64,000 nucleotides of DNA from a virus (IMGVR_UViG_3300031853_000033:3494-67493), one strand, 5' to 3'. Counted from the first letter of the stretch, positions 1,043-60,637 are shown. Translations and numbers: made by a program. The notes: generated by a model from the sequence alone, not told the origin.

Positions 1043-1336
1043 CTACGAACGTAGACTACTCATCCTCTGACGAAATTCTTCTTTTTGCTCCTCCGTGAGA
1101 ACTCTCACCGTCTTCTTTGACCGGAGCGAAATCAAACTGGTCGGACACTCATATGACTTACCGATGACTTCGCCTTTTATGGTCTCGGTTCCCGTACATT
1201 TCCAAAAGTCGGGATTATTTTCGACAAGCTTATCCAGTTTGTTGATGTACCTGGTATCGCTTGCATAGACCTTTGCGACTTTATCATTTCTGCCGAAGCT
1301 GATATGCACTTCCTGCTCGTCACTGCTCAAACTCAT
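1043..1336 (-). CDS. Hypothetical small protein.
   Basis: ORF in operon context, overlapping the next gene by 17 nt. No recognisable motif. Confidence 0.4.
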   Translation of the reverse strand: MSLSSDEQEVHISFGRNDKVAKVYASDTRYINKLDKLVENNPDFWKCTGTETIKGEVIGKSYECPTSLISLRSKKTVRVLTEEQKEEFRQRMSSLRS

Positions 1337-6796: not shown

Positions 6797-6825
6797 TTGA
6801 ACTATACTTCAAAGCATGGTATACT
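6797..6825 (+). promoter_or_regulatory. Putative sigma70 promoter for the repressor/immA/int operon.
   Basis: TTGAAC (6797-6802), 17-nt spacer, TATACT (6820-6825). AAGGAGG RBS at 6847. Confidence 0.45.
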
Positions 6826-6860
6826 TTCCTTATAAAAGCAAATCACAAGGAGGTGCTGAA

Positions 6861-33716: not shown

Positions 33717-34418
33717 CTAAAAGTATTTGACTGTGCAGCGGCATGAGATTAACTCTTCCGGATGACCCTCGCCCATCTCCCAATCCTTGGGATAACGAAG
33801 CATTGCCTCTCCAACCGGAAAGAGCGCATCAATCGGCACAATCATGCCGTCTATATGAGCATGTGTCTGCCGGACCCGTTCGTCATTCATTGTCAGCCAC
33901 TGCTTTTGTGTCATGCCTTGTTCTTTGGCGATGCGATAATCATCGTAGTTGAAAATCGTGTTCGCCTCGTTCTCGGCATTGAATGTTGACCTGTCTTCCG
34001 AGAACCAGTAGGCTAATTTATCCTCCTGACCATCTACGTATGTCTGCACTTTCTTCACCGTGACATCGATGAATCTTTCGGAATACCGCCTGATATAGTT
34101 CTGCATTGCGGTATCGGGAGAAGTGAATCTCTCCGCAAGGCCAAGAAGGTCATCGGTTAATTTATCTTTGATTGCCGAAACATTGCTGTAAGCATTTTGA
34201 GCCAGAACTATAAACAGCAGTGACAATGCAGCGAAAAGGATTTTATCCATTCGCCTTGCGTATTCTTTTCTTGTCTCTGCATCAATCTCAGGCAACTCCA
34301 TCTCATCGAAATACCTGTCGATGTCGATGTGTTTCTGCTTTCTCTTTCCGGCGATTTCATTCAGTTTCTCGAATGTTGTGGTGCTGATTGCCAGTACATT
34401 GAGTTCATCGAACGGCAT
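33717..34418 (-). CDS. Head morphogenesis protein (SPP1 gp7 / MuF-like).
   Basis: 233 aa directly after the portal, with ATGA-type coupling. Confidence 0.55.
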   Translation of the reverse strand: MPFDELNVLAISTTTFEKLNEIAGKRKQKHIDIDRYFDEMELPEIDAETRKEYARRMDKILFAALSLLFIVLAQNAYSNVSAIKDKLTDDLLGLAERFTSPDTAMQNYIRRYSERFIDVTVKKVQTYVDGQEDKLAYWFSEDRSTFNAENEANTIFNYDDYRIAKEQGMTQKQWLTMNDERVRQTHAHIDGMIVPIDALFPVGEAMLRYPKDWEMGEGHPEELISCRCTVKYF

Positions 34419-38448: not shown

Positions 38449-38618
38449 CATTAAGCATCTCTCCGTGACGGCTCTGCCCGGTTTTGCAAGATATTGTGAA
38501 AAACCTATGGCATACATCTCGATATTTTAAAAAAACAGTGTTTACGACATATCCCGGACAAAGCCGTGGGGGTCGCTTAACGAAGAGACGCTTTATATCA
38601 ATCTCAATTCGGGCGAAG

Positions 38619-38691
38619 CAACGCATCTCGGAGTCGAACCGAGGAATCCGGCTGTCAAAGAGCCGTGCCTTCTCCACTTGGCGAATGCGCT
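38619..38691 (-). tRNA. tRNA-Gln (anticodon TTG); no encoded CCA.
   Basis: Manual fold: acceptor AGCGCAT/ATGCGTT, D-arm GCCAAGTGGAGAAGGC, anticodon stem CGGCT/AGCCG with loop CTTTGAC, T-arm CTCGG-TTCGACT-CCGAG, discriminator G. D-arm nearly identical to E. coli tRNA-Gln. Confidence 0.8.
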
Positions 38692-41846: not shown

Positions 41847-42320
41847 TTACCTCAAAATGTTATTTTCCATGAAGGAAAAATAGTTGTTACCACCTACAAT
41901 TATATGGTCAAGTACAGGTAAATCGATAATTTTTCCGGCGTCAATAATTCTTTTTGTTGCGTTTATATCACATTCCGATGGGCTGCAATCGCCTGTTGGA
42001 TGGTTATGCACTATAGTTATATTTGTCGCCCCTATCATAAGCGACTTTTGAAGAATTTCCCGAACCGGGAAAGGACTGCAATTAGTCGACCCGTGCGACG
42101 CTTCGAAAAGCCCTATTAATTTACATTTTGTATTCAGGCATAAAATATAAACAAATTCATCCGAACATTCAGATAAGCCGACTTCATAAAGCATAAACCG
42201 CGCTATATCCTCCGGATTCGTAAACGCGCGGCGCCCGTCAATATTGTAAGTCGTGTTTGTTTCTTTTACATACGGCAAAAAACCGGATTCTAAAACTCCT
42301 TTATATTCCTTCACTTTCAT
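41847..42320 (-). CDS. RadC-like JAB-domain protein (DUF2466).
   Basis: JAB metalloprotease motif ITIVHNHPTGDCSPSECD...LDHIIVG. Confidence 0.75.
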   Translation of the reverse strand: MKVKEYKGVLESGFLPYVKETNTTYNIDGRRAFTNPEDIARFMLYEVGLSECSDEFVYILCLNTKCKLIGLFEASHGSTNCSPFPVREILQKSLMIGATNITIVHNHPTGDCSPSECDINATKRIIDAGKIIDLPVLDHIIVGGNNYFSFMENNILR

Positions 42321-43561: not shown

Positions 43562-44095
43562 TCATGCCACTACCTCATAAATGTTTCCGCTTTCGCTAAC
43601 ATAAAAACGCCCTTCCAGCATGATGTCCCGGCCGTATGCTTCAAAGTCGAAATAATTAATTATGTCTTTCGGAATATTGAGGCATCCGATTTCGATTGCA
43701 AATGCATATCCAACTGCGTGCTCTTCTGACTCCGATCCTTGCGTTGTGGTTATGTAAAGCACGTCGTTTAAGTTTTCTTTGATCTCTTCCGCCGTGTCAT
43801 AGCCGTAATAAATCAGCGCCGCCGCCGCTTCCTCGTTACCGTCCAGCACTTCCGCAAGTTTGTTCAAATCGTCCAGATTGTCATACTCTCCGATTTTCAG
43901 CCCGTCAATATCCGTCTCATAGTCAGTTATAAAATACTCTTCGTAATAATTGCCGTCTTCGTCCGGCTCCTCACTGATTCCGATCCTGTTTAATACGTCT
44001 TCAATCTCTTTATCAGTTGCCGGAAGCTCTAACCATTCTCCGATTAAATATCCTTCGTTGTACTTGCCTAAATTCGTTAAATAAATTCTAATCAT
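43562..44095 (-). CDS. ardA: Antirestriction protein ArdA.
   Basis: Start at internal ATG (RBS AAAGGAGAA). MIRIYLTNLGKYNEGYLIGEWLELP... matches the ArdA N-terminus (MKIYVANLGKYNEG). Acidic, 177 aa. Confidence 0.8.
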   Translation of the reverse strand: MIRIYLTNLGKYNEGYLIGEWLELPATDKEIEDVLNRIGISEEPDEDGNYYEEYFITDYETDIDGLKIGEYDNLDDLNKLAEVLDGNEEAAAALIYYGYDTAEEIKENLNDVLYITTTQGSESEEHAVGYAFAIEIGCLNIPKDIINYFDFEAYGRDIMLEGRFYVSESGNIYEVVA

Positions 44096-44229
44096 TGCTT
44101 TATTCTCCTTTTCTTTATTGATCATTGTTTTCGCTGCCTGGAATACTATCCTGCTTTCATCATCGGAACCGGCGCTAAGCACGTTCCCGATGGTTACTTG
44201 CTTTTATTGTATCCCTTTTTGATAGTATC

Positions 44230-46658: not shown

Positions 46659-47765
46659 TTAATTTATGTTGACCGGGAGAACCACGTACATATATGTCTT
46701 CTCCTCATCTTCAATAATTGTCGGAGATTTATGGTTCATCATCCCGAGAGTCACTACATCGTCATCAATTGCTTTGAGCGCATCCATCAGGAATCTCGGA
46801 TTGAAACCGATACGGATATCATCTCCGATTTTTTCGATGTCAATGGCATCAGAGGTACTGCCGAGTGCCGTGACCGCATCCAGTCGCAGCTCCTTATCGT
46901 CAACCGTAACCACCAGTGGCTTTTTCAGCTTATCTTCTACGATTGCCGTGGATCTGCCGATTGCATCGAGAAGGTCTTTCCTGTTTGCCGTTACTTTTAT
47001 CGGAGTATCGGCCTTGGCAATTTTATCCACATCGAAGTATTCACCTTCAATCACCCTGGTATTTACAATCGTGCTGCCGAATCGGAAGATGACATTTCCG
47101 GTTTCAATTGACACATCCATCGTATCTCCGTCAGCAATCTTAGCTACCTCGTTCAGAGACTTGACCGGAATAATGACTTTCGCATTCTGCCCCTCGTTTG
47201 AATCCAGGTATATCCTGCGGAGTCCTATGCGGTGACCGTCAAGTGCTGTTACGGTCATGGCATCTCCGTCAAATGTGATGCACTCACCTTCCATCATCCT
47301 CATACTGCCGTCCTGAGTGGTGCAGAAATTTGTGCCTGCAATCGCTCTGCAAAATTCGTATACGGGAACCTCGAAATGTACCCCTGTTTTTTCTTTTGGA
47401 AGTCCTACAAAATCCTCCGCAGGTTTGCCCGGAATGTTGAATTTCGCCTTGCCGGATCTGATGACCGTATTGAGTTTTTCCTCATCGCAATCGACTTTGA
47501 TGTCTCCATTTGAGAATCCGTTTACGATATTCGTGAACAGCTTACCGTCAAGAGCGACACAGCCATGTTCGATAATATCCGCAGGAGCCGTAGTCGAAAT
47601 CGCAAGTTCCAAATCGTTGCAGACCAGTTCGATTTCGGAATCGCCGTTTGTTTTGATCAGGACGCAATCGAGAATCGGATTGGTCATGTTATTCTTGCTC
47701 GACAATGCTCTTGTGGCAATCTTCAGAGCAGCTGCCAGATCCTTTTTATCGCAGATGAATTTCAA
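46659..47765 (-). CDS. dnaN: DNA polymerase III beta sliding clamp.
   Basis: 368 aa with typical DnaN N-terminus (KFICDKKDLAAALKIATRALSSKNNMTNPILDCVLI). TTG start with AAGGAGGGG RBS. Confidence 0.85.
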   Translation of the reverse strand: MKFICDKKDLAAALKIATRALSSKNNMTNPILDCVLIKTNGDSEIELVCNDLELAISTTAPADIIEHGCVALDGKLFTNIVNGFSNGDIKVDCDEEKLNTVIRSGKAKFNIPGKPAEDFVGLPKEKTGVHFEVPVYEFCRAIAGTNFCTTQDGSMRMMEGECITFDGDAMTVTALDGHRIGLRRIYLDSNEGQNAKVIIPVKSLNEVAKIADGDTMDVSIETGNVIFRFGSTIVNTRVIEGEYFDVDKIAKADTPIKVTANRKDLLDAIGRSTAIVEDKLKKPLVVTVDDKELRLDAVTALGSTSDAIDIEKIGDDIRIGFNPRFLMDALKAIDDDVVTLGMMNHKSPTIIEDEEKTYMYVVLPVNIN

Positions 47766-49124: not shown

Positions 49125-49461
49125 CTTTCCCTATCCTCTGTATCTCATGCTCGATATAAAACATTGCCTTGCCCAGATCTTCTGCTGTCTTCTCGGGATC
49201 TTTCCTTCCTGCACGGCAGATGTATTTAATTGCGTTTCCAAGATTGAAATTGAGGTTCTGGTCTTCAATAAAATCTATTACCTCAATCTTGCCGTAGTTG
49301 TAATGCGAAGGATGGTTTATCGCATCCTCATTAACTTTGATTTCTTCCATGTTGCTGTTCTCCCACTTCTTACATTCCCATTTATCGCTTATCATGAATC
49401 CCAGTCTGTCGCACAGACCGTTATCGTTGTAAACACAGGTGCTACATCCCTTGGCAATCAC
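49117..49461 (-). CDS. DUF3310-family phage protein.
   Basis: Motif INHPSHYNYGKIEVIDFIED typical of DUF3310. Confidence 0.5.
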   Translation of the reverse strand: MIAKGCSTCVYNDNGLCDRLGFMISDKWECKKWENSNMEEIKVNEDAINHPSHYNYGKIEVIDFIEDQNLNFNLGNAIKYICRAGRKDPEKTAEDLGKAMFYIEHEIQRIGKDD

Positions 49462-50014
49462 ATCCGCTCATCTCCTGTACATCCTTGTCATATGTGTAGG
49501 CAGGTTTGTCGGGAATCCACTCCCCGTTTGAATTTTTACGCCAGATTACTTGGTTCTCACTTCCGACCCATTGCCGGTCTGTATTCCGCTGTGCTTCGAT
49601 GTACTCTCCGTCTACAATGACATCCACAAAGCCGAGAATTTTATCATCCTTAATCTCATCGAATGTATAGCCGGTGTACATCCATACAGTCTTCGAAATA
49701 CCATACCGGAATCGAAAATCTCGGAGCAGATTGTAAATCGCAAGTCTGTTTCCGGGATACATCGGGTCTCCACCGCTGAGTGTCAAGCCGGAGCAGTAAT
49801 CGTTATCGATCAAGTCAAATAATTCTTTCTCGGCATTCTCGTCAAACAGCAGACCGTCATCAGGATTCCAGGTCACGGGATTCTGGCATCCTTTGCAGTG
49901 GTGATTGCAACCGGAAACCCAAAGGATTGCCCTTACTCCGTCACCGTTCAGAAGATTGTCCTTCTCTATGTTCTGATATTTCATCTTCGAAATCGTCACG
50001 CTCCCTTCCTGCAC
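49442..50014 (-). CDS. NrdG-like radical-SAM activating enzyme (anaerobic RNR activase / organic-radical activase family).
   Basis: GCNHHCKGC cluster (C-x3-C-x2-C) and LTLSGGDP motif. About 190 aa. No nrdD in the window. Confidence 0.65.
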   Translation of the reverse strand: MQEGSVTISKMKYQNIEKDNLLNGDGVRAILWVSGCNHHCKGCQNPVTWNPDDGLLFDENAEKELFDLIDNDYCSGLTLSGGDPMYPGNRLAIYNLLRDFRFRYGISKTVWMYTGYTFDEIKDDKILGFVDVIVDGEYIEAQRNTDRQWVGSENQVIWRKNSNGEWIPDKPAYTYDKDVQEMSGCDCQGM

Positions 50015-50098
50015 TCACAAGTGCGATAATCACAATTCCGCTAAATACTCCGAGCATATAAATCATCAGGATACCGAAAAATCCGAATATTATGTCCA

Positions 50099-51084
50099 TC
50101 ATGTTCTTTTTCTCCTTGTATACTCTTCAAATGTCGGGCAACTCCAGAAAATAAAATTACTGCACCATCTCTGCAATCTCTTATAAACCGAATCGCAATG
50201 TTCTTTATCGTAAATCATTGGATACGGAGCAAATTTCAATTCCCGGCAAAGCTGAATCCGGTACAGATCCTGTTCAAGTGTCGTGTCGTAATTGCAGAGA
50301 ATGTATACCATAACTCTGCCCCGGTCTTTATTGAATCCTGTCTTCTCGGCAAATGCTCTCAGCTTCGGTTCGACAATATCTTTGTCCTGCCATCTGTCAA
50401 AAGCAAAATGGATCGAATCGAGCCGGATCTGTTTCAGCAGTTCCATGTTCTTGTCATTCACTAGCCGAATATCCAATCCCTGATTGAAATTGACTTTTGC
50501 TCCGCTGTCTGCCAATTGTTGAAGCAGTTCCATGTGTTGCGGACAGGCTAAGATGTTCGGATCGCAGAGGATGATGTTCTTCTGTCCTCTCCAAAATTCC
50601 GATAAGTCGGCAACCTTCCTCGACCGCTTACCTTCTTTACTCTCCACATGACAGAAACCGCATCCTCTCGGGCATCCTCTTGTCAGAAATCCGTAGGCCG
50701 TATCCTTTGTCAGTTCCGGATACAAATCGTAGTCGGGATAGATATGCTCTATCTCATCGGGAAGGTTCGTGTCTCGCTCGGCATGGTAGACCTCTTTTCC
50801 ATCTACCAATTCTATGCAATAACCGGACCCCCCCGAACGATTTCATCAGCATCAATGCAGTATTCGTAGTCAGGAGTGAAACTGAATACCTTGGACATAT
50901 ACACCTTGTCCATGTGACCGCTAAACATCGGATCATACCATTCGACCGAATCGCCTTGCTGTTTGTGCCATGCGGATATCTTCATCAGAGGAATGTTCGG
51001 GAAGTTATGAGAGTCTACGGAAATAAGACCGATCCTCATCTTCTTACGCATCCTTCTTTTCCATAACAGTCCACATACAAACAT
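50099..51084 (-). pseudogene. Radical-SAM enzyme with a Rossmann/B12-binding-like N-terminal domain, split into two ORFs by a frameshift at a G7 (C7 on +) homopolymer.
   Basis: ORF 50812..51084 is the N-terminal domain and ORF 50099..50809 the rSAM core (CPRGCGFC). One extra G at 50828-50834 fuses them into a ~326-aa protein. Confidence 0.6.
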
Positions 51085-51345: not shown

Positions 51346-51660
51346 TCAATTCCACACCTCCTGATAAGCATCATATTTCTCTGCATCCGTAGCGTTCTTC
51401 GGTTCCTTTTTCGGCTTCCAATCATCACATGGCTTGCTCCTGTGCGGATAATTATGACAGGTCGGAACCGTTCCCCAGTAGTGATAGCAATCATCGCATG
51501 AGTGTTCTGGGTTGTTTTTGTGGGTCTTCCATAGTGCCTTTGCTTCGACCTGTCTGATGCGCTCTTTGGTTACGCCGTAGATTTCCGCTATCTCATTGAG
51601 TGATTTATTCTCGACATACCGCAGATGGATAACTTCCTGCTCACGTTTTGTCAGTTTCAT
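51346..51660 (-). CDS. Sigma-70 region-4-like (LuxR/ECF-type HTH) transcription regulator with Cys/His-rich C-terminus.
   Basis: Start at internal ATG (MKLTKREQEVIHLRYVENKSLNEIAEIYGVTKERIRQVEAKAL). C-terminal CDDCYHYW...CHNYPH...C. Confidence 0.6.
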   Translation of the reverse strand: MKLTKREQEVIHLRYVENKSLNEIAEIYGVTKERIRQVEAKALWKTHKNNPEHSCDDCYHYWGTVPTCHNYPHRSKPCDDWKPKKEPKNATDAEKYDAYQEVWN

Positions 51661-51844
51661 AGGAATATTCCTTTCGCTCCTCCTCAATAAATCGGTCAAT
51701 AAACTCGCACTTCTCGCAATCGAATGTGCTGTTATCGCACACATATTTTGGGCAATCAGCCCCCTTCTTGCCGTGAAAGTAGCAGGCCGTGTTGTCGCAA
51801 TCGTAGCAGGTGGTCTTGCGAGTGCATTCTGACATTGTTATCAT
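51641..51844 (-). CDS. Cys-rich small protein.
   Basis: Start at MITMSEC with GGAGGAGG RBS. Eight Cys arranged in CxxC pairs. Confidence 0.35.
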   Translation of the reverse strand: MITMSECTRKTTCYDCDNTACYFHGKKGADCPKYVCDNSTFDCEKCEFIDRFIEEERKEYSYETDKT

Positions 51845-52128
51845 TTGTCCTCCTCCGACCAGCACGGTAACTGCACCATTGCCATTTTCATTTCGGTCTG
51901 CACCGTATTACACCAGTTCTTTAAATTGTCCGATTCTATCTGACTGCATATCTCGGCAGGATTTATATCAAAGATCAAATCATTCAAATGCTTTGCGGCG
52001 TCATTCGATTTTGGAGGAAACCAACATTTCTGTTCCAATTCCTGTCTGATTATTTCGGTATCATTCGTATTATCTCTGACAAGCCGCTTTGTAACCTTTA
52101 CGGCATCGTCCAGCGATAGCATTAACAT
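51841..52128 (-). CDS. Hypothetical protein.
   Basis: 95-aa ORF with ATGA overlap. Confidence 0.35.
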   Translation of the reverse strand: MLMLSLDDAVKVTKRLVRDNTNDTEIIRQELEQKCWFPPKSNDAAKHLNDLIFDINPAEICSQIESDNLKNWCNTVQTEMKMAMVQLPCWSEEDK

Positions 52129-52502
52129 TATTTATCCTCCTTTGGTCTGAAAGCAAGTGGAAGCAGTCTCCATGCGACAACTTTTCCATCTGTCTTTAAA
52201 TCATCTGTTGTTGACCATTCTTTTGTGGATTCGTAATAATATCCAATTCCCATTGTCCCGTTTTCGGTAATATACCATACCGCACCATCCGGACATTCTA
52301 TGCAAGAATTATAATCATCTTCTTCCGGAAGTCTCTTGCTGCATGGCATCCACCCGTCATCTGCATCGGGAATACCGTTAATCAAGTCAGTGATGATTTT
52401 TCTCTTTTCATCTGCGTCTTCCACTGTATATCCGTCTTCGTCATGCCAGTTCATGTTGGTCATAAGATAGTTGATTGCATCTTCTCTGCTAATAAGGCTC
52501 AT
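52128..52502 (-). CDS. DUF551-domain protein.
   Basis: C-terminal WMPCSKRLPEE ... KVVAWRLLPLAFRPK matches the DUF551 signature (WIPCSERLP...AWMPLPEPY). Confidence 0.5.
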   Translation of the reverse strand: MSLISREDAINYLMTNMNWHDEDGYTVEDADEKRKIITDLINGIPDADDGWMPCSKRLPEEDDYNSCIECPDGAVWYITENGTMGIGYYYESTKEWSTTDDLKTDGKVVAWRLLPLAFRPKEDK

Positions 52503-52692
52503 TGTGTGTCACCGTCCTTCTACTCCTGCCATAATGGACAATTAAATCTAAGCGGTTCTCCCCATTTAGGCCTTACTTCACAAGTCTTTGCAGTTCCACA
52601 ATCATTGCAGTTTGGCATCTGTGTGATTCTGCGGTAAGCAGTTAAATTATCCAGAATGCTTGCTACGTAAGAAATGCTATCGTCTAATCTGC

Positions 52693-52944
52693 TCATTTTG
52701 TGTCACCGTCCTTCTGCAACCGCTGATTGTCATGCCATTCAAAAACAAGTTCCTCTCTCACCAAAGCGGATTTGTAATCCGGGTCAAAACGACTTTTTCC
52801 GTTGTAAATCCATCGGAGTCCTTTCGGGTTATTAATCGCTCCTATGCGTGGTCTCCATCCATCGGGGATATAGTCAAGAACCTCCATGCCTTTTTCCACC
52901 TCCGCTAACGCCGTGAGCGGTGCGGTGCTCCATTTCTCGCTCAT
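52693..52944 (-). CDS. Hypothetical protein.
   Basis: 83-aa ORF. Overlaps the upstream ORF by 70 nt in the +1 frame. Confidence 0.3.
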   Translation of the reverse strand: MSEKWSTAPLTALAEVEKGMEVLDYIPDGWRPRIGAINNPKGLRWIYNGKSRFDPDYKSALVREELVFEWHDNQRLQKDGDTK

Positions 52945-53173
52945 TAGGAAACGTGAACGTTTTATCTCCTGCCTCGATAGCCGATATCAGCATCTCAAGC
53001 GCATACACGCACCATTCACGGTTTCGGTACCTTGCGATTTCTCCGCCGGATCCATTCCGCCCTACTGCCTGTATACCTGTCCCTGTCCCGGTAACGTGAA
53101 GTCTTGACATATCATCGAAATTCCATACTGCTTGTTTGTTCTGCGTGAAAATAATCATCTTCTCACCCTTCAC
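52874..53173 (-). CDS. Hypothetical protein.
   Basis: 99-aa ORF with Gly-rich tail; the tail may be out of frame. Confidence 0.3.
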   Translation of the reverse strand: MKGEKMIIFTQNKQAVWNFDDMSRLHVTGTGTGIQAVGRNGSGGEIARYRNREWCVYALEMLISAIEAGDKTFTFPNEREMEHRTAHGVSGGGKRHGGS

Positions 53174-53363
53174 CTTCCTTCAAATCTACGTGCTTATTTA
53201 CCGACCACTGTACATTCACTGTGCCGCCAAAATTTGCTATTAGATCGCACTCCTCTTCAAAAAATTCAGTCAACTTATCATTTAGTGCCTGCATGAAAAG
53301 CTTATGGTTCTCGCAAGTCAGATCTATCCAAATTGGCAAAAGATATGTTGTTTTTTTACTCAT
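53163..53363 (-). CDS. Hypothetical protein.
   Basis: 66-aa ORF. Confidence 0.3.
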   Translation of the reverse strand: MSKKTTYLLPIWIDLTCENHKLFMQALNDKLTEFFEEECDLIANFGGTVNVQWSVNKHVDLKEGEG

Positions 53364-53617
53364 TTGTCACCCTTCACCTTCCTTCCACACTCAGGACAAT
53401 AATTCAGATCAAAACCTATTCCCCGATAGCGATATTGAATTGTCCTGCCTGCTGTTGTTTTGCCCTTTTTCTTATACCAAGTTCTTTTAACGATCGCGAC
53501 CGTGTACTCAATCATGTATTTGCCATATTCCTTCAGTTCGGCATCGGTTGACCATCCGCATGATATCTCATACACTTGATGATTGGATTTCATTGCTTCG
53601 CAGAATCGGCAAGCCAT
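53360..53617 (-). CDS. Zinc-ribbon small protein.
   Basis: CRFC ... CPECG pairs. Confidence 0.35.
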   Translation of the reverse strand: MACRFCEAMKSNHQVYEISCGWSTDAELKEYGKYMIEYTVAIVKRTWYKKKGKTTAGRTIQYRYRGIGFDLNYCPECGRKVKGDK

Positions 53618-54004
53618 TCACCCTTCACCTTCCTTCTGCATCGGGTTTCCACATTTCGGGCAGAAATTATATTCTTTGATAAAATCTATAAATTTACGCT
53701 TGTAATCCCACGGGACGAAAAAGCCACATTCGCTACAATGATAACCGTCACACATAGCAACATCATGCTCTCCGTATATCCACCGCCCCGTCTTGCGTTC
53801 GGGCTGTGCGGATGATACTTTTTTTACGCCAATCCTAAATCCTTTTTCAAAAGCCTCACGAATACTTGTATTAACATCGCATTCTTGCTTGAAATAATTA
53901 TTAATTACGATTTGCATCTTTTTTTCGCTTATTCCCATCCTGTCCCCCTTCCCACGGTTTCGGCAACGGCATCCAAGCAATAGGTTTTTCCTCATTGTAT
54001 CCAA
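53618..54004 (-). CDS. SAQPE-linker / zinc-ribbon protein (member of the paralogue array).
   Basis: VSSAQPERKTGRWIY followed by CSECG...CPKCG, paralogous to the C-terminus of ORF 54887..55354. Confidence 0.45.
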   Translation of the reverse strand: MDTMRKNLLLGCRCRNRGKGDRMGISEKKMQIVINNYFKQECDVNTSIREAFEKGFRIGVKKVSSAQPERKTGRWIYGEHDVAMCDGYHCSECGFFVPWDYKRKFIDFIKEYNFCPKCGNPMQKEGEG

Positions 54005-54278
54005 CCAAACTATATATCCCTTCGCCAGTATTTATAGCCCAATCTCCATCTTCATAAAAACCAACGCCCATATTGCCCTTAAACTGCAACAGGACATCTA
54101 AATTGTTGTCGGGCATTTTATCTTCTACAGAAATCCAATTCGGATGTGCCGTATCGGTGACCACTATAACTTCTCCGGGATCAGTGCCAAAATAGCCGCC
54201 ATTGTTGCGGATGATGATTGTGTCTTTACGGATTTCGTCAACGTATCCATGAACAAAACATCTATCGCCTATTTTCAT
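53901..54278 (-). CDS. DUF551-domain protein.
   Basis: KMPDNNLDVLL ... KPIAWMPLPKPWEG. Confidence 0.5.
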   Translation of the reverse strand: MKIGDRCFVHGYVDEIRKDTIIIRNNGGYFGTDPGEVIVVTDTAHPNWISVEDKMPDNNLDVLLQFKGNMGVGFYEDGDWAINTGEGIYSLVGYNEEKPIAWMPLPKPWEGGQDGNKRKKDANRN

Positions 54279-54727
54279 TTTTCTTCACCTCGATAACATT
54301 CTGGTAACGGCATCCATGCGATAACTTTATAATTCGGGAACGCATATTTCTTATCCCAATGCCACATACCATCATATGTACAAGCTGTCACGGTCATTCT
54401 TTCGCCATTGACCTCTACTGTAGCAAGGACATACTCTGACCTTTTTTTAGTCCCCAACTTCTTTAAAATTCCTGCGTCTTTTTCCTCTGGCATCCGCTCA
54501 CTACACGGTATCCACCGCTGTTCTGGCTGTGCGGAGGGCAACTGTTCAATCTTCTTTTCCGCAAGATATATCCCTTGCCTAACAAGGTCTGCCGCTTCTG
54601 TTGGGTCGATATCCCTTTGATATTCATACAACTCAATCAGCGCATCAATCGCCGCTTGTCTGCTGATACAGTCTGAACTGTTCGGAAATTCCGAATACCT
54701 CAACGCTTCGATAGCCGTATCACTCAT
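54275..54727 (-). CDS. Modular paralogue: ISRQAAIDAL-LPSAQPE N-module + DUF551 C-domain.
   Basis: ISRQAAIDALIELY...EQLPSAQPEQRWIPCSERMPEE...KVIAWMPLPECYRG. Confidence 0.55.
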   Translation of the reverse strand: MSDTAIEALRYSEFPNSSDCISRQAAIDALIELYEYQRDIDPTEAADLVRQGIYLAEKKIEQLPSAQPEQRWIPCSERMPEEKDAGILKKLGTKKRSEYVLATVEVNGERMTVTACTYDGMWHWDKKYAFPNYKVIAWMPLPECYRGEEK

Positions 54728-54890
54728 CGTCCTCGCCTCTCCTTTTTAGCCACTTTTTCAACTTCGTCTTCAATGATGGTTTATACTGCAAACATTCACC
54801 AGAATAATAAATGTTCCAAACTCCCGTCTTACATGGTTCCTTTTTATCGGAACGAAAATTGTATTTGCATCCCACACATGATTTTTTCAT
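54720..54890 (-). CDS. Small Cys-rich (zinc-finger-like) protein, 56 aa.
   Basis: Hand-translated MKKSCVGCKYNFRSDKKEPCKTGVWNIYYSGECLQYKPS... with RBS GAGAGGTG. ATGA overlap with the downstream gene. Absent from the six-frame track (below its length cut-off). Confidence 0.35.
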   Translation of the reverse strand: MKKSCVGCKYNFRSDKKEPCKTGVWNIYYSGECLQYKPSLKTKLKKWLKRRGEDDE

Positions 54891-55354
54891 TCCTGTTCAC
54901 CTCTCATATCTGCTCCGCAGTTCGGGCAGTAAGCAAATGCTTTTACCTTGCTGTCATGAATAAGATAATTACATTCAGAACAAGCACTTGTAACTGGGTA
55001 CTTTCCAATCCACTTCCCTTTCTTCCGCTCTGGCTGTGCGGATGGCAATTCCAACAATTCTCCTTCCATCACATCGCTATAGACGGCGTTTGCGCTCCAT
55101 GCCACATGACCTTCACAATTCTGTTCTTCTGCGAACGTCAATCTAAATGTATTTTTCCTCACGGCATCAATCGCCGCCCGTCTATCAATCAAATCTGAGT
55201 TGTTCGGAATTTCCGAACAGTTGTTTTTCGGCTGTGCGGACGGAAGCTTTTTTATTCCGTTAACGATTGTTTGTGCCAAACCTTCCCACTCTCCGCACTC
55301 AAATTCAACGATACTAATCGCCGCCTGTCTGCTCACCAAACTATCATCCATCAT
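54887..55354 (-). CDS. Modular paralogue: two SRQAAI...LPSAQP modules + C-terminal zinc ribbon.
   Basis: VSRQAAISIV...KKLPSAQPK and IDRRAAIDAV...LELPSAQPERKKGKWIG, then CSEC...CPNCG. Start placed at MMDDS after a KGE-encoding RBS. Confidence 0.5.
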   Translation of the reverse strand: MMDDSLVSRQAAISIVEFECGEWEGLAQTIVNGIKKLPSAQPKNNCSEIPNNSDLIDRRAAIDAVRKNTFRLTFAEEQNCEGHVAWSANAVYSDVMEGELLELPSAQPERKKGKWIGKYPVTSACSECNYLIHDSKVKAFAYCPNCGADMRGEQE

Positions 55355-56240
55355 TTCGCCTTTCTGCCCAATAGCAAAATCCATTGCATGTTACCAAGTC
55401 AGCATTAAGATAATCGCACCTGCCAAGTCCATAGCCCTTCATTTTTCCCGTAGTTTGAGTCCAGTGTTTGCAAGAATTGCAACGGATGATTTCGGGCTGA
55501 ACGGATGGCAACGCCTTAATGGCATCAAAAGCCGATTTTCCGGCATACTTCCATTCAAGAGCATCTAATGCCCCTTTTCTGCTTATTGTGTCCCCGTCTG
55601 TCTTGATTTCCGACTCAAGAGACATAAGCCTTGTTTCGGCATCCGCTTCCGTGTGTCCGTCCCAATGTGGCGCCCTCGGAAGATCAATACAGTCAAACAT
55701 ATCCCAATATTTATTTTCGTAGTGGTAAGTATAACTTCCCTCCGGCGTATCAATTCCAACAACGAACCATCCGCCACCAAAGCAGTATTCCCCATCTTCA
55801 TGTCTATACGATTTCCATGCCTTGCTCTTATACGCCTTTACAAGTGCGGCGAATAAAATCATCCTTTGTTCATAAAGCCCATTAAACGTGTGAAAACCGT
55901 CAGACACTTCTCCGATATCGTTAACGCCTGCAGCGGTACATATTGCTTTCCTTCTTGCCATTTCTGTATCAGTCATCATTTTGCCTTTCCCATATCCGCA
56001 AAAGAAATCTTTCGGTGTCTCAAAGGTTCCGTATCTGCTCAGACATTCGCATAAGTGATTGTTTTTCCAGTGTTCGCAAAACTCGCAATGGATGATTTCT
56101 GGCTGTGCGGACGGTAGATTCTCCAAATCGTACTTATATTTTTCAAATGCCTTATACCAATCGCCTGGTGTGTCAGCAATGCACCCGGCAAAGTTGTACA
56201 GAATATCAATAGCCGCCGCTCGACTTATCAGATCATCCAT
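55344..56240 (-). CDS. Modular paralogue: two SRxAAIDxL...LPS(A/V)QPE modules flanking a central Trp/Gly-rich domain.
   Basis: ISRAAAIDIL...ENLPSAQPEIIHC; central WKSYRHEDGEYCFGGGWFVVGIDTPEGSYTYHY; ISRKGALDALE...KALPSVQPEIIRC. Start at MDDLISR. Confidence 0.5.
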   Translation of the reverse strand: MDDLISRAAAIDILYNFAGCIADTPGDWYKAFEKYKYDLENLPSAQPEIIHCEFCEHWKNNHLCECLSRYGTFETPKDFFCGYGKGKMMTDTEMARRKAICTAAGVNDIGEVSDGFHTFNGLYEQRMILFAALVKAYKSKAWKSYRHEDGEYCFGGGWFVVGIDTPEGSYTYHYENKYWDMFDCIDLPRAPHWDGHTEADAETRLMSLESEIKTDGDTISRKGALDALEWKYAGKSAFDAIKALPSVQPEIIRCNSCKHWTQTTGKMKGYGLGRCDYLNADLVTCNGFCYWAERRNDG

Positions 56241-56595
56241 CCTGTTCACCCTCCTGATATGATTCTGGTAGTGGCATCCAAGCAACAACATTTCGTGTGT
56301 AATACCAAAAGCGTTTTCCCGAATCATACTGTCCACATCTATCAACATCTACAGTTTTGATTCCACCACTGTCATCTGTGACAAGAACTAATTCATCTAC
56401 ATCAGGCAATCTCTCACTGCACGGAATCCACTGCTGTTCCGGCTGTGCGGGTGGAAGTGCTTTTACCTGTCTGATTGCCCAATCCGTCATAGCATCAACT
56501 ATACAAGGATCGTCTTTTGCAGATTGAATGTTGCCGTCCCAGTACGCAACTCTCAGCGCATCAATCGCCGCCTGTCTGCTGATTAAATCACTCAT
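56233..56595 (-). CDS. Modular paralogue: ISRQAAIDAL-LPPAQPE + DUF551 C-domain.
   Basis: MSDLISRQAAIDALRVAY...VKALPPAQPEQQWIPCSERLPD...VVAWMPLPESYQEG. Confidence 0.55.
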   Translation of the reverse strand: MSDLISRQAAIDALRVAYWDGNIQSAKDDPCIVDAMTDWAIRQVKALPPAQPEQQWIPCSERLPDVDELVLVTDDSGGIKTVDVDRCGQYDSGKRFWYYTRNVVAWMPLPESYQEGEQDG

Positions 56596-56860
56596 CCTCC
56601 CGCCTTTCTGTTTCCACCTCATACCAATCAGGCAACATCTGGTTTCTTTTACAGTTTTTGCAAGGCATCATATAGGCATGTCCTAAGTGTATACAATTCT
56701 TACAGGTTAAATGCTGTTCGGGCTGGGTGGATGGCAATTCTTCAATCCTTTCTGCAAGCAATCTTTGGTCATCTTCACGGAATGCACCGCCAAAAAATTC
56801 TACAAAAAATTCTAAAGCCGTTTTTATTGCCAACCTTCTGTTTATCGTGTCATCCATCAT
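56588..56860 (-). CDS. Modular paralogue: N-module + zinc-ribbon C-terminus.
   Basis: MMDDTINRRLAIKTALEF...EELPSTQPEQHLTCKNCIHL...CKNCKRN. Confidence 0.45.
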   Translation of the reverse strand: MMDDTINRRLAIKTALEFFVEFFGGAFREDDQRLLAERIEELPSTQPEQHLTCKNCIHLGHAYMMPCKNCKRNQMLPDWYEVETERREDE

Positions 56861-57759
56861 TTCGCCTTTCTCTTCATGTATGCACCACAATATCCGCAAT
56901 AATTCATGTCATAGTCAAATGTTCTTCCGCACCAATTGCATTCATAAGGACTCTCTTCGTCATCTTTCCAATCTTGATGGAATATCCATTCCCCCGTATA
57001 ATCCAGGTCAAATCTTCTCAGCTTCTCCAACAAATCGGTCTTGACGTACAAGTCCGTACCCTTGATTTCGAACTCACCAAACATTCGCCGCTCTTGTCCT
57101 AGCTCTAAAATGAATTTATCCCCGGGCTTAAAATCGGTCTTTCCGACATGGATGTCGGGAACATCACCATTACTCATCCGCGACCTAATGTAATTTTTCC
57201 ACCATTCATCGCTATTACTCATTTCAGATTCGCCATCCTCTGACGGCTCTTTTGAGAATGAATTCGACTTTTCCTGCTCTGAAAGTGAAACTCGTTCTGA
57301 ATCGGTCTTGATTTTCTCAACAACATCCATCGCTTTTCGCAACAGGCAGTTTGGATTGCATTGCCCACAATGCTCCATCAGATAGCACCCATCACACAGT
57401 GTTATCATGTTGGTAAGCACTTCCTGTTTGTTTATTGATTCTTCATCGGTCTTTTTCGTGTGGTCACGAAATTGATCGGAATCGGCAATAACACTGTTAA
57501 TAAGTGACTCCGCAATAATCAGCCGTTCTGTGATTGTACGCTTCTTTAGATTAATTGCGATTCTATCTTCGTCATTTTCGGCTGTTTTGGTGCAGATAGA
57601 GCCGGTTTCGGGCACACTGCTTGCACACTGCTTGCTTAATGCGGATATGGTAATATCTAAGGCTTCATGGTCATAGCTGGTTAATGCACGATAATCCGCA
57701 AGAATCTCTCTGATCTCGTTAATGCGCTTAATCACCTGCTCATTCGTCATCCGCGTCAC
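56857..57759 (-). CDS. Hypothetical protein with Cys clusters and C-terminal zinc ribbon; contains a GDKF-ILELG domain also present in ORF 59006..59284.
   Basis: CDGCYLMEHCGQCNPNC ... CNWCGRTFDYDMNYCGYCG. GDKFILELGQ...FEIKG resembles GDKFVIEIGE...YKIKG at 59006..59284. Confidence 0.45.
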   Translation of the reverse strand: MTRMTNEQVIKRINEIREILADYRALTSYDHEALDITISALSKQCASSVPETGSICTKTAENDEDRIAINLKKRTITERLIIAESLINSVIADSDQFRDHTKKTDEESINKQEVLTNMITLCDGCYLMEHCGQCNPNCLLRKAMDVVEKIKTDSERVSLSEQEKSNSFSKEPSEDGESEMSNSDEWWKNYIRSRMSNGDVPDIHVGKTDFKPGDKFILELGQERRMFGEFEIKGTDLYVKTDLLEKLRRFDLDYTGEWIFHQDWKDDEESPYECNWCGRTFDYDMNYCGYCGAYMKRKAK

Positions 57760-58058
57760 CTCTCAAAATCAATCTTTTGCCCACAGTAACCGCATCTGTC
57801 CGTATCATTTACGAATTTGTGTAATGTCCCCACCCTACTGTTACCGTAAGCGATATAATTACCGCACGTAGGGCAATACAGCTTGTACAGATCTTTGCTG
57901 AATGTGTCTATGTCTTTCATTGGCTGTTGCGGTATTTCTTTGTTTAACGCTTCAATTGCCAGTTCCAGAGCATCAAACGCATCAAACGTTATCTGCGGCT
58001 CCCACGGTTCTGGCTCTTGCAGACGTTTCAAAATCGGGATAGCTTCCTCATTCGTCAT
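57756..58058 (-). CDS. Hypothetical zinc-ribbon protein.
   Basis: CPTCGNY ... CGYCGQK. ATGA overlap. Confidence 0.4.
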   Translation of the reverse strand: MTNEEAIPILKRLQEPEPWEPQITFDAFDALELAIEALNKEIPQQPMKDIDTFSKDLYKLYCPTCGNYIAYGNSRVGTLHKFVNDTDRCGYCGQKIDFER

Positions 58059-59005: not shown

Positions 59006-59284
59006 TCACCTCATTCTTCTGATTTCGTCAAAGGCTTCATCGACACAGTCAAGCATGTTCAGCCTGCCGGCATCGTAGCCGTTTTCCCATGCTTTGCGAA
59101 CAGCCTCTGCACTGGTCAAATTCGACTGTTTCATCAGTCTGCTGATACCGACATCATCGAAAACCAGAGTGTTAAACCCTTTAATTTTGTAAAGCAGTTT
59201 GCCGTCCTTACTGAGAATGATTTCTCCGATTTCGATTACGAATTTGTCACCTACTTTTATGTCACCTTTACTAGATGTATTCAC
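59006..59284 (-). CDS. Hypothetical protein carrying the GDKFVIEIG domain.
   Basis: Start moved to GTG 59284 (RBS AAGGAAGGTGA); the 5' part of the six-frame ORF is the alternate frame of the upstream gene. Confidence 0.35.
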   Translation of the reverse strand: MNTSSKGDIKVGDKFVIEIGEIILSKDGKLLYKIKGFNTLVFDDVGISRLMKQSNLTSAEAVRKAWENGYDAGRLNMLDCVDEAFDEIRRMR

Positions 59285-59945
59285 GAATATCACCTTCCTT
59301 TCCCCACTGATCGGCCATAGCTTCTGCAATCCCTGGAAACGTCTTACTTCTTGCTTTTGAACGCTCGTCCGGTGGAAGACCCCAACTGTAAGCGTGCCAA
59401 GGCGAATCAGTGCTGTTTCCTGTAATAACAGTTGTTGGCTCAATAATATTTGTTGGTCTTAATGGCTCAAGTCCTTTAAGCCAAAGACAAGTTTTCTTCT
59501 TTGCATCGTCTCCGAAGTAGTACGGATGTATAACGCAGTCGGGTTTCCTATATGCGGTATTCATGATACCAACAGGATTTTCCACAGCGATCCTGTCACA
59601 ATCAGCTAGGATGAAATGCATGAAGAACACAATTGCCTTATATCTGTCTTTGTATCTTTGCCTTGCTTTTTCTCCGTACTTTTCGATGTTGAACCAACTG
59701 TTGCCAGTTACGGTCAAATATGTGCAAGGTGGATGTGCGATAATCAGATCCCATTTCGAATCAATTCGTACCTTATGTCCTGTCATCGTTATGAATTCAC
59801 AATGACCGTTCAACAGCGGAAGACAATCACTTTTGATATGCCATTCCGGATGACCGCCTGACGGATTCAAGATGTCGCAGCTATACGCTTCGTGTCCTCT
59901 CTTCCGAAAGGCTTCGCATACTCTTTGTGATTCTTCACACGCCAC
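59271..59945 (-). CDS. Compact Dcm-fold-like protein (C5-pyrimidine methyltransferase-like motifs IV 'PPC' and VI 'ENPVG'; no FxGxG motif, no TRD), paralogue A.
   Basis: DLIIAHPPCTYLT, DRIAVENPVGIMNT. N-terminus (I)KVLVACEESQ positioned like motif I. Canonical ATG replaced by ATA (in-frame GTG follows). Confidence 0.45.
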   Translation of the reverse strand: MACEESQRVCEAFRKRGHEAYSCDILNPSGGHPEWHIKSDCLPLLNGHCEFITMTGHKVRIDSKWDLIIAHPPCTYLTVTGNSWFNIEKYGEKARQRYKDRYKAIVFFMHFILADCDRIAVENPVGIMNTAYRKPDCVIHPYYFGDDAKKKTCLWLKGLEPLRPTNIIEPTTVITGNSTDSPWHAYSWGLPPDERSKARSKTFPGIAEAMADQWGKEGDIREYI

Positions 59946-60016: not shown

Positions 60017-60637
60017 TTACGCCGCCGTCTCTTGTATATGTATCTTCCCAAACTCTGACTTTCCCGAATGGAAGAACACCGTACAGTTCACGGTTGTTTG
60101 GTTTTTCTCCTCTGTAGGTTGGGATAAGTGGCGGCAATCCTTTAACCAAAAACACGTTTTCTTTGTCACAAAATTATCTTTATCTTCCGGACCATCGCTA
60201 AACATGTACGGGTCTATGCATTGATCGGGTTTTCGGTAACAAGTGTTCATAACTCCTACCGGGTTTTCGATTGCTATCCTGTCGCAATCAGCATTGACGC
60301 AATCCATAAAAAACCTCATACCCTCTATCCTGTTCAGTGTCCGTGCGTTAATCCAATTCAGAGGAGTCATCCTGATGCTGTGCTGCCTTGTAGCAACATT
60401 GCTGAGATACGTACAAGGTGGATGAGCAATGATTAAGTCCCATCTGTTTATGTGTATCTTTTCACCTGTTTGTAATCTCATCGTGCCACCGTTAAGTACC
60501 GCCCTGGCATCCATTAAAATGTGCCATTTCGGAACCCCCGTACATTTTTGAATGTCACAGGAGTAGGCTTCATGGCCTTTTTCACGGAATGCCTTACACA
60601 CTGTCTGCGACTCCTCGCAAGCTATCAGTACTTTCAT
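60017..60637 (-). CDS. Compact Dcm-fold-like protein, paralogue B; C-terminus out of frame (1-nt A-run indel near 60140).
   Basis: MKVLIACEESQTV..., DLIIAHPPCTYLS, DRIAIENPVGVMNT. The frame-shifted tail ...FGGIAKAMAEQWG is recovered in overlapping ORF 59964..60155 and matches paralogue A's C-terminus. Confidence 0.45.
   Translation of the reverse strand: MKVLIACEESQTVCKAFREKGHEAYSCDIQKCTGVPKWHILMDARAVLNGGTMRLQTGEKIHINRWDLIIAHPPCTYLSNVATRQHSIRMTPLNWINARTLNRIEGMRFFMDCVNADCDRIAIENPVGVMNTCYRKPDQCIDPYMFSDGPEDKDNFVTKKTCFWLKDCRHLSQPTEEKNQTTVNCTVFFHSGKSEFGKIHIQETAA

Follow-up and report, generated by a model that had tools for sequence, protein, structure and literature searches.

Small accessory genes of a temperate siphophage form a tandem array of domain cassettes that appear to be exchanged at translated DNA borders

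The virus sequence IMGVR_UViG_3300031853_000033:3494-67493, a stretch of 64,000 nt referred to as the window in the following, carries at 52128-58058 on the minus strand about 11 small accessory genes in an operon-like arrangement. Many of these genes encode a recurrent N-terminal module (N-module) which is joined to one of several small C-terminal domains. A complete N-module reads 'xDLISRQAAID', 14-45 variable residues and 'LPSAQPE', and was defined by the pattern [D/N]x[I/V][S/D/N]Rx(A/L/G)A(I/L) for its start and LP[S/P][A/T/V]QP[E/K] for its end, which forms the junction to the following part of the protein. Module start and junction are conserved as DNA between modules that are otherwise dissimilar, and matches to related phages end preferentially at these two borders.

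The original prediction, made from the sequence of the window, had described at least eight modular paralogues at 52128-56899. The modular array as such was recovered. In a six-frame motif scan this interval contained seven complete N-modules in five consecutive genes and two half-modules, and at least a part of a module is present in seven array genes. The extent had been drawn too narrowly, since the 56857 and 57756 genes, which encode cap-type hairpins and zinc ribbons, carry the array on to 58058. It comprises the following features:

57756..58058, minus strand: cap-type helical hairpin (MTNEEAIPILKRL...ALELAIEALNKEIPQQP) and zinc ribbon (PHROG 10714, E=1e-9)
56857..57750, minus strand: larger member with cap-type hairpin, central region with 'DVPDIHVGKTDFKP' and C-terminal zinc ribbon
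56850..56871, minus strand: gene-boundary repeat AGAAAGGCGAAATGATGGATGA (ribosome-binding site and MMDD start), with an identical copy at 55344-55365 (family D6)
56588..56860, minus strand: type-E N-module (DTINRRLAIKTALEFFVEFFGGAF...LPSTQPE) and CxxC-x11-CxxC domain
56233..56595, minus strand: type-C N-module (ALRVAYWDGNIQSAKDDPC..) and DUF551 (Pfam DUF551, E=2.5e-9)
55344..56240, minus strand: fusion of an N-module with the Cys-rich domain C1, WDGH (~55617-55913) and a second N-module with C1
54887..55354, minus strand: type-D N-module, palindromic linker, type-B N-module and zinc ribbon (ERKKGKWI...CPNCGADMRGEQE)
55201..55219: 19-bp palindrome TGTTCGGAA-T-TTCCGAACA, translated in frame as the linker 'NCSEIPNN' between two modules
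54720..54890, minus strand: stand-alone Cys-rich mini-gene with an ATGA overlap to the gene upstream and an overlap of 8 nt with the gene downstream
54679-54697: second copy of the palindrome with 1 mismatch, in the linker before the 54275 module
54275..54727, minus strand: type-F N-module (ALIELYEYQRDIDPTEAADL..) and DUF551 (Pfam DUF551, E=1e-6), preceded by the linker remnant 'SEFPNSSD'
53901..54278, minus strand: DUF551 gene with a different N-terminal domain (Pfam DUF551, E=6.8e-8)
53618..53938, minus strand: type-G N-part (MGISEKKMQIVINNYFK..), SSAQPE junction and zinc ribbon
52128..52502, minus strand: type-A-like N-part (LISREDAINYLMTNMNWHDEDGY..), decayed junction and DUF551-like domain
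Within 53801..56737, minus strand: eight junction sites with the consensus TTG CCA TCC GCA CAG CCA GAA (LPSAQPE) at 56720-56737, 56440-56457, 56100-56117, 55494-55511, 55229-55246, 55031-55048, 54524-54541 and 53801-53818
Within 52473..56845, minus strand: eight module-start sites with the consensus ATC AGC AGA CAG GCG GCG ATT GAT (ISRQAAID) at 56825-56845, 56563-56583, 56208-56228, 55566-55586, 55316-55336, 55169-55189, 54647-54667 and 52473-52493
53160-53181, 53364-53385, 53615-53636, 52497-52521 and 52691-52715: further gene-boundary blocks

One complete module each is encoded by the genes at 56588-56860, 56233-56595 and 54275-54727, while those at 55344-56240 and 54887-55354 carry two, in agreement with the earlier statement that the module is used twice in some genes. 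The gene at 53618-53938 contains a 3' half-module only (SSAQPE), and its N-part 'MGISEKKMQIVINNYF..' represents a separate N-type that recurs in the database. The gene at 52128-52502 retains the 5' half-module only (LISREDAINYL), its junction having decayed to GIPDADDG; in the database type A is frequently found with an intact 'GVPSAQPE' junction. At 53901-54278, previously counted among the N-module genes, the six-frame scan found no N-module motif and DUF551 is all that this gene shares with the scheme. The cap hairpin of the two outermost genes constitutes a second recurrent N-terminal hairpin (MTxEEAI..L ... A(L/M)xxAIxAL..Q), which also heads the multi-module proteins P0052, P0126, P0144, P0152 and P0162 of the family as well as a DUF551 protein of Butyrivibrio virus Ceridwen. 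The 56857 gene shows weak Pfam zinc-ribbon matches at residues 271-293 and shares 'DVPDIHVGKTDFKP' with P0144.

The 298-amino-acid WDGH protein (55344-56240) consists of three former genes fused into one, with a seam at 55969-55990. At this position a vestigial ribosome-binding site and an in-frame ATGATG lie inside the open reading frame (ORF) ('GKGKMMTD', repeat family D6), and the first part of the fusion occurs in another metagenome as a separate protein of 88 amino acids (P0063) ending in '...GYGKEK'.

The array genes are closely packed. Four pairs are joined by ATGA overlaps according to their coordinates (54887/54890, 54275/54278, 53360/53363 and 52693/52696), as had been noticed before, and the suspected unlisted Cys-rich mini-ORF at 54720-54890 is a real gene that was also called in the public assembly (56 amino acids, L010 11706-11876). 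The window is identical to a part of the ENA metagenome contig ERZ27256883 k141_3403312, which we used for the comparison of gene calls. The likely true starts (MMDD.., MSDLISR.., MDDLISR..) are preceded by ribosome-binding sites of the GGAG type inside the last codons of the preceding gene, and they match the public gene calls with the exception of the 54887 gene, for which a longer upstream start is given there. An identical 22-mer (ribosome-binding site and ATGATGGATGA) stands in front of two different genes. Gene-boundary blocks of 22-25 nt with 86-96% identity to the reference copy were found downstream of the module genes, too, and the products of the small genes end in tails (..KEGEG, ..MRGEQE, ..AERR..) that arise by translation of the Shine-Dalgarno sequence of the respective next gene. 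These boundary blocks provide further short homologies and suggest tight translational coupling.

The repeated 14-mer at the junction (GGCTGTGCGGAYGG) was found nine times in the window with up to two mismatches, compared with 0.44 matches expected, and none of 100 shuffled sequences contained nine or more. Eight of these matches lie inside the array (53802, 54525, 55032, 55230, 55495, 56101, 56441 and 56721), which comprise all seven positions listed originally and additionally 55495. As candidates for the function of the motifs we considered a Chi-like site, which was rejected since the motif does not recur outside the array, and an RNA pairing of the 5' and 3' motifs, which show a complementarity of at most 4 bp by eye. 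We know of no Chi sequence that matches the junction motif.

DUF551 (PF04448) had been assigned to four ORFs. Three of them reached the gathering score of 22 bits (53901, 33.7 bits; 54275, 30.0 bits; 56233, 38.3 bits), whereas the match of 52128 remained below it (17.2 bits); the latter protein matches the DUF551-containing PHROG 15198 (E=3.9e-11). The distinct Trp-Gly domain of 55344 ('WKSYRHEDG..GGGWFVVG') could be identified as Pfam WDGH (PF25311; 136.7 bits compared with a gathering score of 27, E=3.4e-40, profile positions 1-97 of 97). The zinc ribbons proposed for 53618, 54887 and 56588 all have the CxxC...CxxC motifs, and that of 53618 weakly matches the Lar-like restriction alleviation PHROG 6422 (E=0.0084, 39 residues). 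Besides DUF551, WDGH and zinc ribbons no Pfam domain was detected in the array genes of the window, and 149 family members yielded DUF551, zinc ribbons and DUF7130 only, with no enzyme among the Pfam matches. The C-terminal domains thus described appear to be small and non-catalytic as far as sequence comparison tells.

AlphaFold predicts each N-module as a helix-loop-helix hairpin, with predicted local distance difference test scores (pLDDT) of 50-70 in the two-module 54887 protein and 74-86 in the type-C module. PSAQPE is modelled as a disordered linker, and the zinc ribbon of the 54887 protein reaches a pLDDT above 90. The AlphaFold2 model of the 56233 protein (mean pLDDT 84.5) consists of a helical hairpin (H7-18/H30-45), the linker and a small beta-rich DUF551 domain. 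Foldseek searches of the PDB with both models gave no significant neighbour (best E 0.79 and 0.12).

The family is large. Based on a profile of the seven modules of the window, 7,320 cluster representatives (50% identity) were retrieved at E<=1e-3 and 1,110 at E<=1e-10; the copy number ranges from one to five per protein, and many family proteins carry 2-5 modules in tandem. The N-module was not matched by any Pfam or NCBIfam model, and a sequence search of the PDB found no relative of the module proteins. Among 50,697 GenBank phages, blastn with the array gave no match and tblastn with the modules detected no module copy; only the DUF551 part of the 56233 protein was matched, for instance in Butyrivibrio virus Ceridwen. 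Scans of the GTDB representative genomes with the type-C plus DUF551 protein and with the type-B module gave no confirmed relative, and therefore the family looks absent from these representative genomes. Among the searchable papers none mentioned the LPSAQP or ISRQAAID motifs, and nothing was found for 'WDGH domain'. Public contigs of this phage and of a close relative stop inside the array (L007 at 9591, L010 at 12613). Contigs that end in this way indicate that the repeats break short-read assemblies, so that such arrays are probably under-represented or truncated in the databases.

The N-modules fall into discrete types with about 80-95% identity within a type, and between types only the two ends are alike; every module of the window can be assigned to one such type. 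These ends are conserved at the codon level (ATC AGC AGA CAG GCG GCG ATT at the start, the junction consensus at the end). We analysed a first set of 64 distinct modules from 35 loci, which had been fetched by protein patterns outside the junction, and used the module interiors as background. The junction Ser is encoded by TCC in 48/56 cases (background 5%), Ala by GCA in 53/55 (30%), the first Pro by CCA in 55/64 (35%) and Leu by TTG in 38/58 (29%). In pairs of modules of different types (33 types) the codon identity at positions with the same residue was 0.71 at the junction (0.37 expected) and 0.70 at the start (0.35 expected). The second set consisted of 91 modules of 58 unrelated interior types that were found via the exact 5' 23-mer; having been gathered by the 5' motif, it is unbiased for the 3' end. 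Here the junction Ser is TCC in 49/53 types and Ala is GCA in all 54 of 54.

Exact copies of the junction 18-mer and of the start 23-mer were found in at least 119 IMG/VR contigs each. According to our own estimate for ~1e11 bases, at most about 1-2 occurrences would be expected by chance for 18 specified bases and far fewer for the 23-mer. The conserved blocks measure about 21 nt at the junction, or up to ~60 nt in total if the homology runs on into DUF551, and 23-40 nt at the module start; positions 56555-56598 of the window, for example, are matched by many unrelated contigs with 93-100% identity over 29-44 nt. In the interior of type B, the one type tested, the proportion of synonymous differences (pS) is 0.47 and that of nonsynonymous differences (pN) 0.05 (pN/pS 0.11), while the junction codons for Ser, Ala and Gln of the same type show a pS of ~0.1-0.2. 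According to these values the type-B interior is old and under purifying selection. Divergence by point mutation would have saturated the borders as well, and therefore the borders have presumably been homogenised, or the interiors replaced, by recombination.

Breakpoints were located by blastn of the window against all fetched loci (high-identity matches, 92-98%). In three loci, L055, L056 and L057, a match with 94-97% DNA identity extends from a point upstream of the type-E gene to 56716/56717, a position inside the junction, and breaks off there. In L055 it is followed by the junction and 'ERKTGRW' of the 53618 gene of the window (97%, 39 nt) and, further on, by the 3' end of the same gene (92%); a three-way alignment places the crossover within CCATCCGCACAGCCCGAA. 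With the window as reference, L055 looks like the product of an exchange between two junction copies 2.9 kb apart. The type-C module is followed in L002 and L012-L015 with 95.5% identity down to 56436 and then gives way to the zinc ribbon of the 53618 type, while in L056 it is conserved at 95% down to 56437 and is joined to a different C-part. In L040 the match begins at the 54887 junction, covers the two following genes and breaks off at 54642 within the start motif of the 54275 module. In L055, furthermore, the C-terminus found in front of 55344 in the window adjoins the start of the type-E gene instead, and gene boundaries are thus a third exchange site. As had been expected for related phages, L055, L056, L057, L002 and L012-L015 differ from the window in their domain combinations, with breakpoints at the junction 14-mer.

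The matches (>=100 nt, >=80% identical) have 38 distinct ends. Of these, 12 are no more than 15 nt away from a junction centre (1.9 expected, P=2e-7), and seven are equally close to a start motif (1.9 expected). In the protein sequences N- and C-types assort freely: each of seven N-types was found with the zinc ribbon (41 sequences) as well as with a Cys-rich 'IIRCxxC...AERR' domain (35 sequences), the two main C-types, and in addition with many rarer ones. The most frequent N-type is B. The type-E gene has a relative with 98% identity (P0028), and P0019, P0037 and P0001 keep its N-module at 88-96% with unrelated C-parts. The arrays of other phages contain two to seven junctions and differ in content. 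With eight junctions the window has the most among ~290 loci; nine consecutive module genes were found in L225 and five in L207.

Ordinary tandem duplication followed by divergence would explain that the paralogues are arranged in tandem and co-oriented, and the motifs, being conserved at the protein level as well, could then be domain or linker residues without any special part in recombination. However, border synonymous sites are conserved across unrelated types while the type-B interior has the high pS given above, N-modules with 88-98% identity carry unrelated C-parts, and the DNA identity drops exactly at the junction. We therefore regard duplication and divergence as a very improbable explanation. 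Even less credible is an artefact, either assembly chimerism at the repeats or the misreading of non-coding repeats or iterons as ORFs. Public contigs often end inside the arrays (L007, L010) and the repeats do trouble assemblers, but with 21-40 nt they are shorter than typical final assembly k-mers (the public copy of the window is a 'k141_' contig), and identical combinations were found again in independent samples (P0078 on 6 contigs, L056/L057, L007/L008). The ORFs are furthermore long and equipped with ribosome-binding sites and start codons, the pN/pS is 0.11, and the C-terminal domains fold with a pLDDT above 90 and match Pfam families.

Taken by itself, an exchange of cassettes at the DNA borders is thus very probably the correct reading of these sequences. 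The shuffling by short homology that the original prediction proposed is supported, with two amendments: the homology is longer than the 14-mer (~21 to ~60 nt), and the module start represents a second class of breakpoints. Similarly, the term 'hypervariable' holds for the combinations and the content of the array but not for the sequences, which are discrete conserved alleles (pN/pS 0.11 for type B). The array should better be described as combinatorially reassorted conserved cassettes.

The window represents most of the genome of a temperate siphophage belonging to an anaerobic community of the gut or rumen. The large terminases nearest to its own belong to a lemur-gut virus (47.7% identity) and a phage of [Clostridium] innocuum (40.1%). 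Outside the array the following genes were assigned:

1320-2339, minus strand: RecT-like single-strand annealing protein (PHROG 2185, E=3.4e-70; weak Pfam RecT match)
2537-4471, minus strand: SbcC-like ATPase, annotated as palindrome-specific endonuclease subunit (PHROG 77, E=5.4e-57; Pfam AAA_23)
6816-9530, minus strand: large serine recombinase and a helix-turn-helix / ImmA-type peptidase pair
34418-36037, minus strand: portal
36814-38517, minus strand: large terminase
41847-42320: RadC-like JAB domain protein
43562-44182: ArdA anti-restriction protein
46659-47765: phage DNA polymerase III beta clamp
49442-50809: two adjacent radical-SAM / 4Fe-4S proteins
51346-51744: sigma-70 region-4 protein

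The serine recombinase (8184-9530), which adjoins the gene pair for the repressor and the ImmA-type peptidase, is probably the phage integrase. Structural genes occupy ~14-36 kb, judged from ORF sizes alone; an HNH endonuclease is found among the packaging and structural genes, and lysis is represented by an endolysin with GH25, CW_7 and CHAP domains. A tRNA-Gln gene (anticodon TTG) is located at 38618-38691 on the minus strand directly upstream of the large terminase gene, and the Rfam scan of the window detected nothing but a tRNA. The gene at 186-905 encodes a metallo-beta-lactamase-fold hydrolase with a weak likeness to the anti-Pycsar protein Apyc1 (E=3e-4, below threshold).

The region of 59-64 kb encodes two methyltransferase-like ORFs, an SPFH protein and a DnaB-like helicase. 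The methyltransferase-like ORFs are paralogous neighbours (59271-59945 and 60017-60637) a short distance upstream of the array. Each of them gave a match to PHROG 757, a DNA methyltransferase family (E=1e-59 and 4e-44), and the pair looks like a tandem duplication or a split gene. Based on the helicase and the methyltransferases on one side and the sigma-70 region-4 protein on the other, the array sits between replication genes and a late sigma-like regulator, which is the usual place of small accessory genes in phages. In the cultured Butyrivibrio phage Ceridwen, DUF551 and 'KGHWI...CPNCGADMR' zinc-ribbon domains follow a related 'QEPK' junction, which hints at Lachnospiraceae-type hosts.

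According to the mechanism we propose, each protein consists of one or more hairpins of ~45 amino acids, a flexible Pro-rich linker (PSAQPE) and a small non-enzymatic C-terminal domain chosen from zinc ribbon, Cys-rich mini-domain, DUF551 beta domain and WDGH. The cassette borders are the module start (23-40 nt), the N/C junction (~21 nt) and the blocks of ribosome-binding site and start codon between the genes. Homologous or annealing-type recombination at these borders, either among the tandem paralogues or with co-infecting phages and prophages, would swap N-modules, C-terminal domains and whole genes, and the same process would delete, duplicate or fuse genes. The phage's own RecT-like protein probably assists in the exchange. 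Since the translated border blocks form a helix start and a linker and are structurally harmless, almost any combination should fold. Short or diverged homology suffices for phage annealing proteins. Their mode of action has been presented as 'relaxed' homologous recombination in the account of PMC3945230.

With respect to function, the hairpins may serve as scaffolds for oligomerisation or docking while the C-terminal domains would bind targets. The early accessory position with ArdA and methyltransferases nearby, the non-catalytic binding domains, the large number of paralogues per phage and their reassortment across phages point to adaptors in the interaction with the host, i.e. in takeover or counter-defence, or alternatively to regulatory adaptors. 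By analogy a host-interaction role is possible, but we put it forward tentatively and give it somewhat less than even chances. The complete proposal, cassette exchange together with such an adaptor function, is in our view rather more probable than not, though clearly less certain than the exchange considered alone.

Several points weigh against this proposal. A protein-level role of the border residues, for example in a shared docking helix, could impose additional constraint, although it would not explain the identity at synonymous sites. Part of the enrichment of breakpoints is built in by the sampling since most loci were fetched via type-B or type-C matches. With 21 nt the junction is hardly longer than the minimum for an efficient recombination of the annealing type, and the contribution of the RecT-like protein is assumed solely from the presence of its gene in the same genome. 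The adaptor function, finally, is derived from context and from the analogy to lambda Ea22 discussed below, the fold searches having given nothing.

The linkers between successive modules are drawn from a limited vocabulary, and the sampled ones include palindromes and short tandem repeats at the DNA level. 'NNCSEIPNNSD' is encoded by TGTTCGGAA-A-TTCCGAACA, 'DVPDTNVGD' by CCGACAcaaaTGTCGG, and 'ETHDKRTGTHACD' by three ACGCACG units with CGCACGCGTGCG at the end. In IMG/VR at least 119 contigs contain the 19-bp palindrome TGTTCGGAA-N-TTCCGAACA, compared with ~1-2 by chance, an over-representation of about 100-fold, and in the window it is present at the two array sites only. Among the matches listed (loci L058-L137) it serves as in-frame linker of the family, occurs in other proteins, or is non-coding in about half of the cases (~50 sites), where it sometimes forms the core of 25-29-bp hairpins flanked by A/T runs. 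The other proteins that contain it in frame include some with 'VVRKFRTT', presumably RhuM-like, with 'LFGISEHE', which we take to be AAA-type ATPases, and with 'VFGNSEHL'. The linkers are possibly nuclease or binding sites. On the plus strand, antisense to the genes, the palindromic linker and a T-run score as an intrinsic terminator at 55198-55222 (11-bp stem followed by GTTTTTCGG), which might block antisense transcription through the array. A role as sense-strand terminator was rejected since the scan was not above background and this antisense site was the sole terminator-like reading.

The palindromes raise the question of whether the array is a dedicated device for the combinatorial diversification of host-interaction proteins. 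Border blocks and palindromic linkers would then have been selected as recombination signals, the SbcC-like or another nuclease would cut the linkers, and RecT would anneal the 21-40-nt blocks. Such programmed shuffling would be consistent with the palindromic or repetitive linkers (TGTTCGGAA-N-TTCCGAACA, CCGACAcaaaTGTCGG, three ACGCACG units and CGCACGCGTGCG), with the over-representation of the 19-bp palindrome, with SbcC-like and RecT-like genes in the same genome and with the synonymous-site conservation of the borders. Yet the array contains only two palindromes, and most of the observed breakpoints lie at junctions with no palindrome nearby. The same palindrome is not specific to this system, as it occurs in unrelated proteins and intergenic hairpins, and genes for SbcCD-like and RecT proteins are common general recombination functions of phages. 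Cutting of the linkers by the SbcC-like protein is speculative, and we consider the diversification device as a whole unlikely. If it were true, a phage population would keep making new combinations of hairpins and binding domains, and the array would be an intragenic cassette counterpart of integrons or antigenic-variation loci.

The palindromic linkers are also compatible with a selfish origin, in which the module, with or without its linker, would be mobile coding DNA that spreads by in-frame insertion into phage genes and is tolerated as a harmless hairpin. Rickettsia palindromic elements provide the precedent: repeated palindromic DNA is translated in frame into a helical peptide of ~45-50 amino acids which the host protein tolerates. 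The modules resemble them in being repeated DNA with palindromic linkers that is read in frame as a tolerated helical peptide of similar size (~45 amino acids), with conserved DNA ends, structurally neutral translation products of these ends and 1-5 tandem copies per protein. Unlike the Rickettsia elements, which are one sequence scattered in unrelated genes, the array shares only the ends of its modules, whose interiors comprise at least 58 types, with type B under strong purifying selection; this does not resemble a single spreading element. The modules are furthermore almost restricted to the N-terminal part of one class of small proteins, and neither target-site duplications nor a transposase were seen. 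A selfish nature of the cassettes appears quite improbable for these reasons, even more so than programmed shuffling.

Cassette exchange at conserved motifs, which we prefer, is an evolutionary mechanism of an already known kind. In the gp38 adhesin of the T4 superfamily, conserved glycine-rich motifs between hypervariable segments serve as exchange points (PMC3157838). The array is similar in that variable segments are bounded by short conserved motifs, chimeras form at or near the motifs, and a large library of segments is shared across phages. However, gp38 is a single receptor-binding virion protein whose motifs form the structural core, while the window contains an array of non-structural early genes whose blocks code for the start of a helix and for a linker, and the exchange involves entire domains with different folds. 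Repeated short motifs also mediate gene insertion, deletion and replacement in the hyperplastic regions of T4-type phages with their PeSL cassettes (PMC2839356, PMC4122927). Short conserved DNA motifs are likewise repeated there through a region of small, non-essential genes and recombine between nearby copies. In contrast to the PeSL, which are intergenic promoter-plus-terminator cassettes, the repeats of the array are intragenic and translated, and neither promoter-like sites (19 compared with 17.2 in shuffled sequences) nor terminator-like sites (8 compared with 6.5) were in excess in the array.

The original prediction had termed the array 'effector-style'. In polymorphic toxin and contact-dependent inhibition (CDI) systems, conserved pre-toxin junctions such as VENN in CdiA separate a shared N-terminal part from alternative C-terminal domains, alternative modules form tandem arrays, and exchange is thought to occur by recombination at the junction. 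The LPSAQPE junction, conserved as protein and as DNA and coinciding with breakpoints, is similar in design only. No toxin domain was detected by Pfam in the window genes or the 149 family members, no secretion or trafficking domain by Pfam or NCBIfam, and no immunity gene, the neighbours in the array being further family members. The array proteins are moreover small (~90-300 amino acids) and phage-encoded, and their N-part is as variable as the C-part. The effector label is thus no more than an analogy.

Comparable in outline is Ea22/Ead of phage lambda, an early non-essential protein with a helical or oligomerising N-terminal part and mosaic C-terminal domains, among them DUF551 in the Shiga toxin phage variant V2, as reported in the portions of PMC10834534 drawn on here. 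The array proteins likewise join a helical N-part to swappable C-terminal domains including DUF551. None of them, however, had a Pfam Ead/Ea22 match (E<=0.1) or the Ea22/Ead signature (IPR025153), and while Ea22 is encoded by one gene per phage and forms a long coiled coil, the array consists of short hairpin modules. Those portions of PMC10834534 describe no conserved junction DNA for Ea22. Shufflons or other invertible segments were rejected, since all junction copies are on one strand and the sole pair of inverted repeats is an artefact of the two palindromes. No reverse transcriptase of a diversity-generating retroelement was found among the ~50 window ORFs scanned, and the module types differ along their full length, not at adenines only. 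In comparison with these systems the protein family is new. The same applies to exchange signals of 21-40 nt that are translated and conserved in at least 58 types of cassette, each motif being present in at least 119 viral contigs, to the way in which gene boundary, module start and N/C junction are nested as three classes of borders, and to the in-frame palindromic linkers.

Most early genes of phages are small, unannotated and highly variable, and the locus shows one concrete way in which such a repertoire arises: the DNA of the cassette borders is conserved, so that domains are recombined in the manner of interchangeable parts. The two short DNA motifs provide a searchable signature for such arrays and for exchange events in viromes. 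The family furthermore represents a natural library of small helical hairpins and of zinc-ribbon and DUF551 binders, which are presumably tuned to host targets, and offers a tractable system for gauging how much homology phage annealing proteins need in nature.

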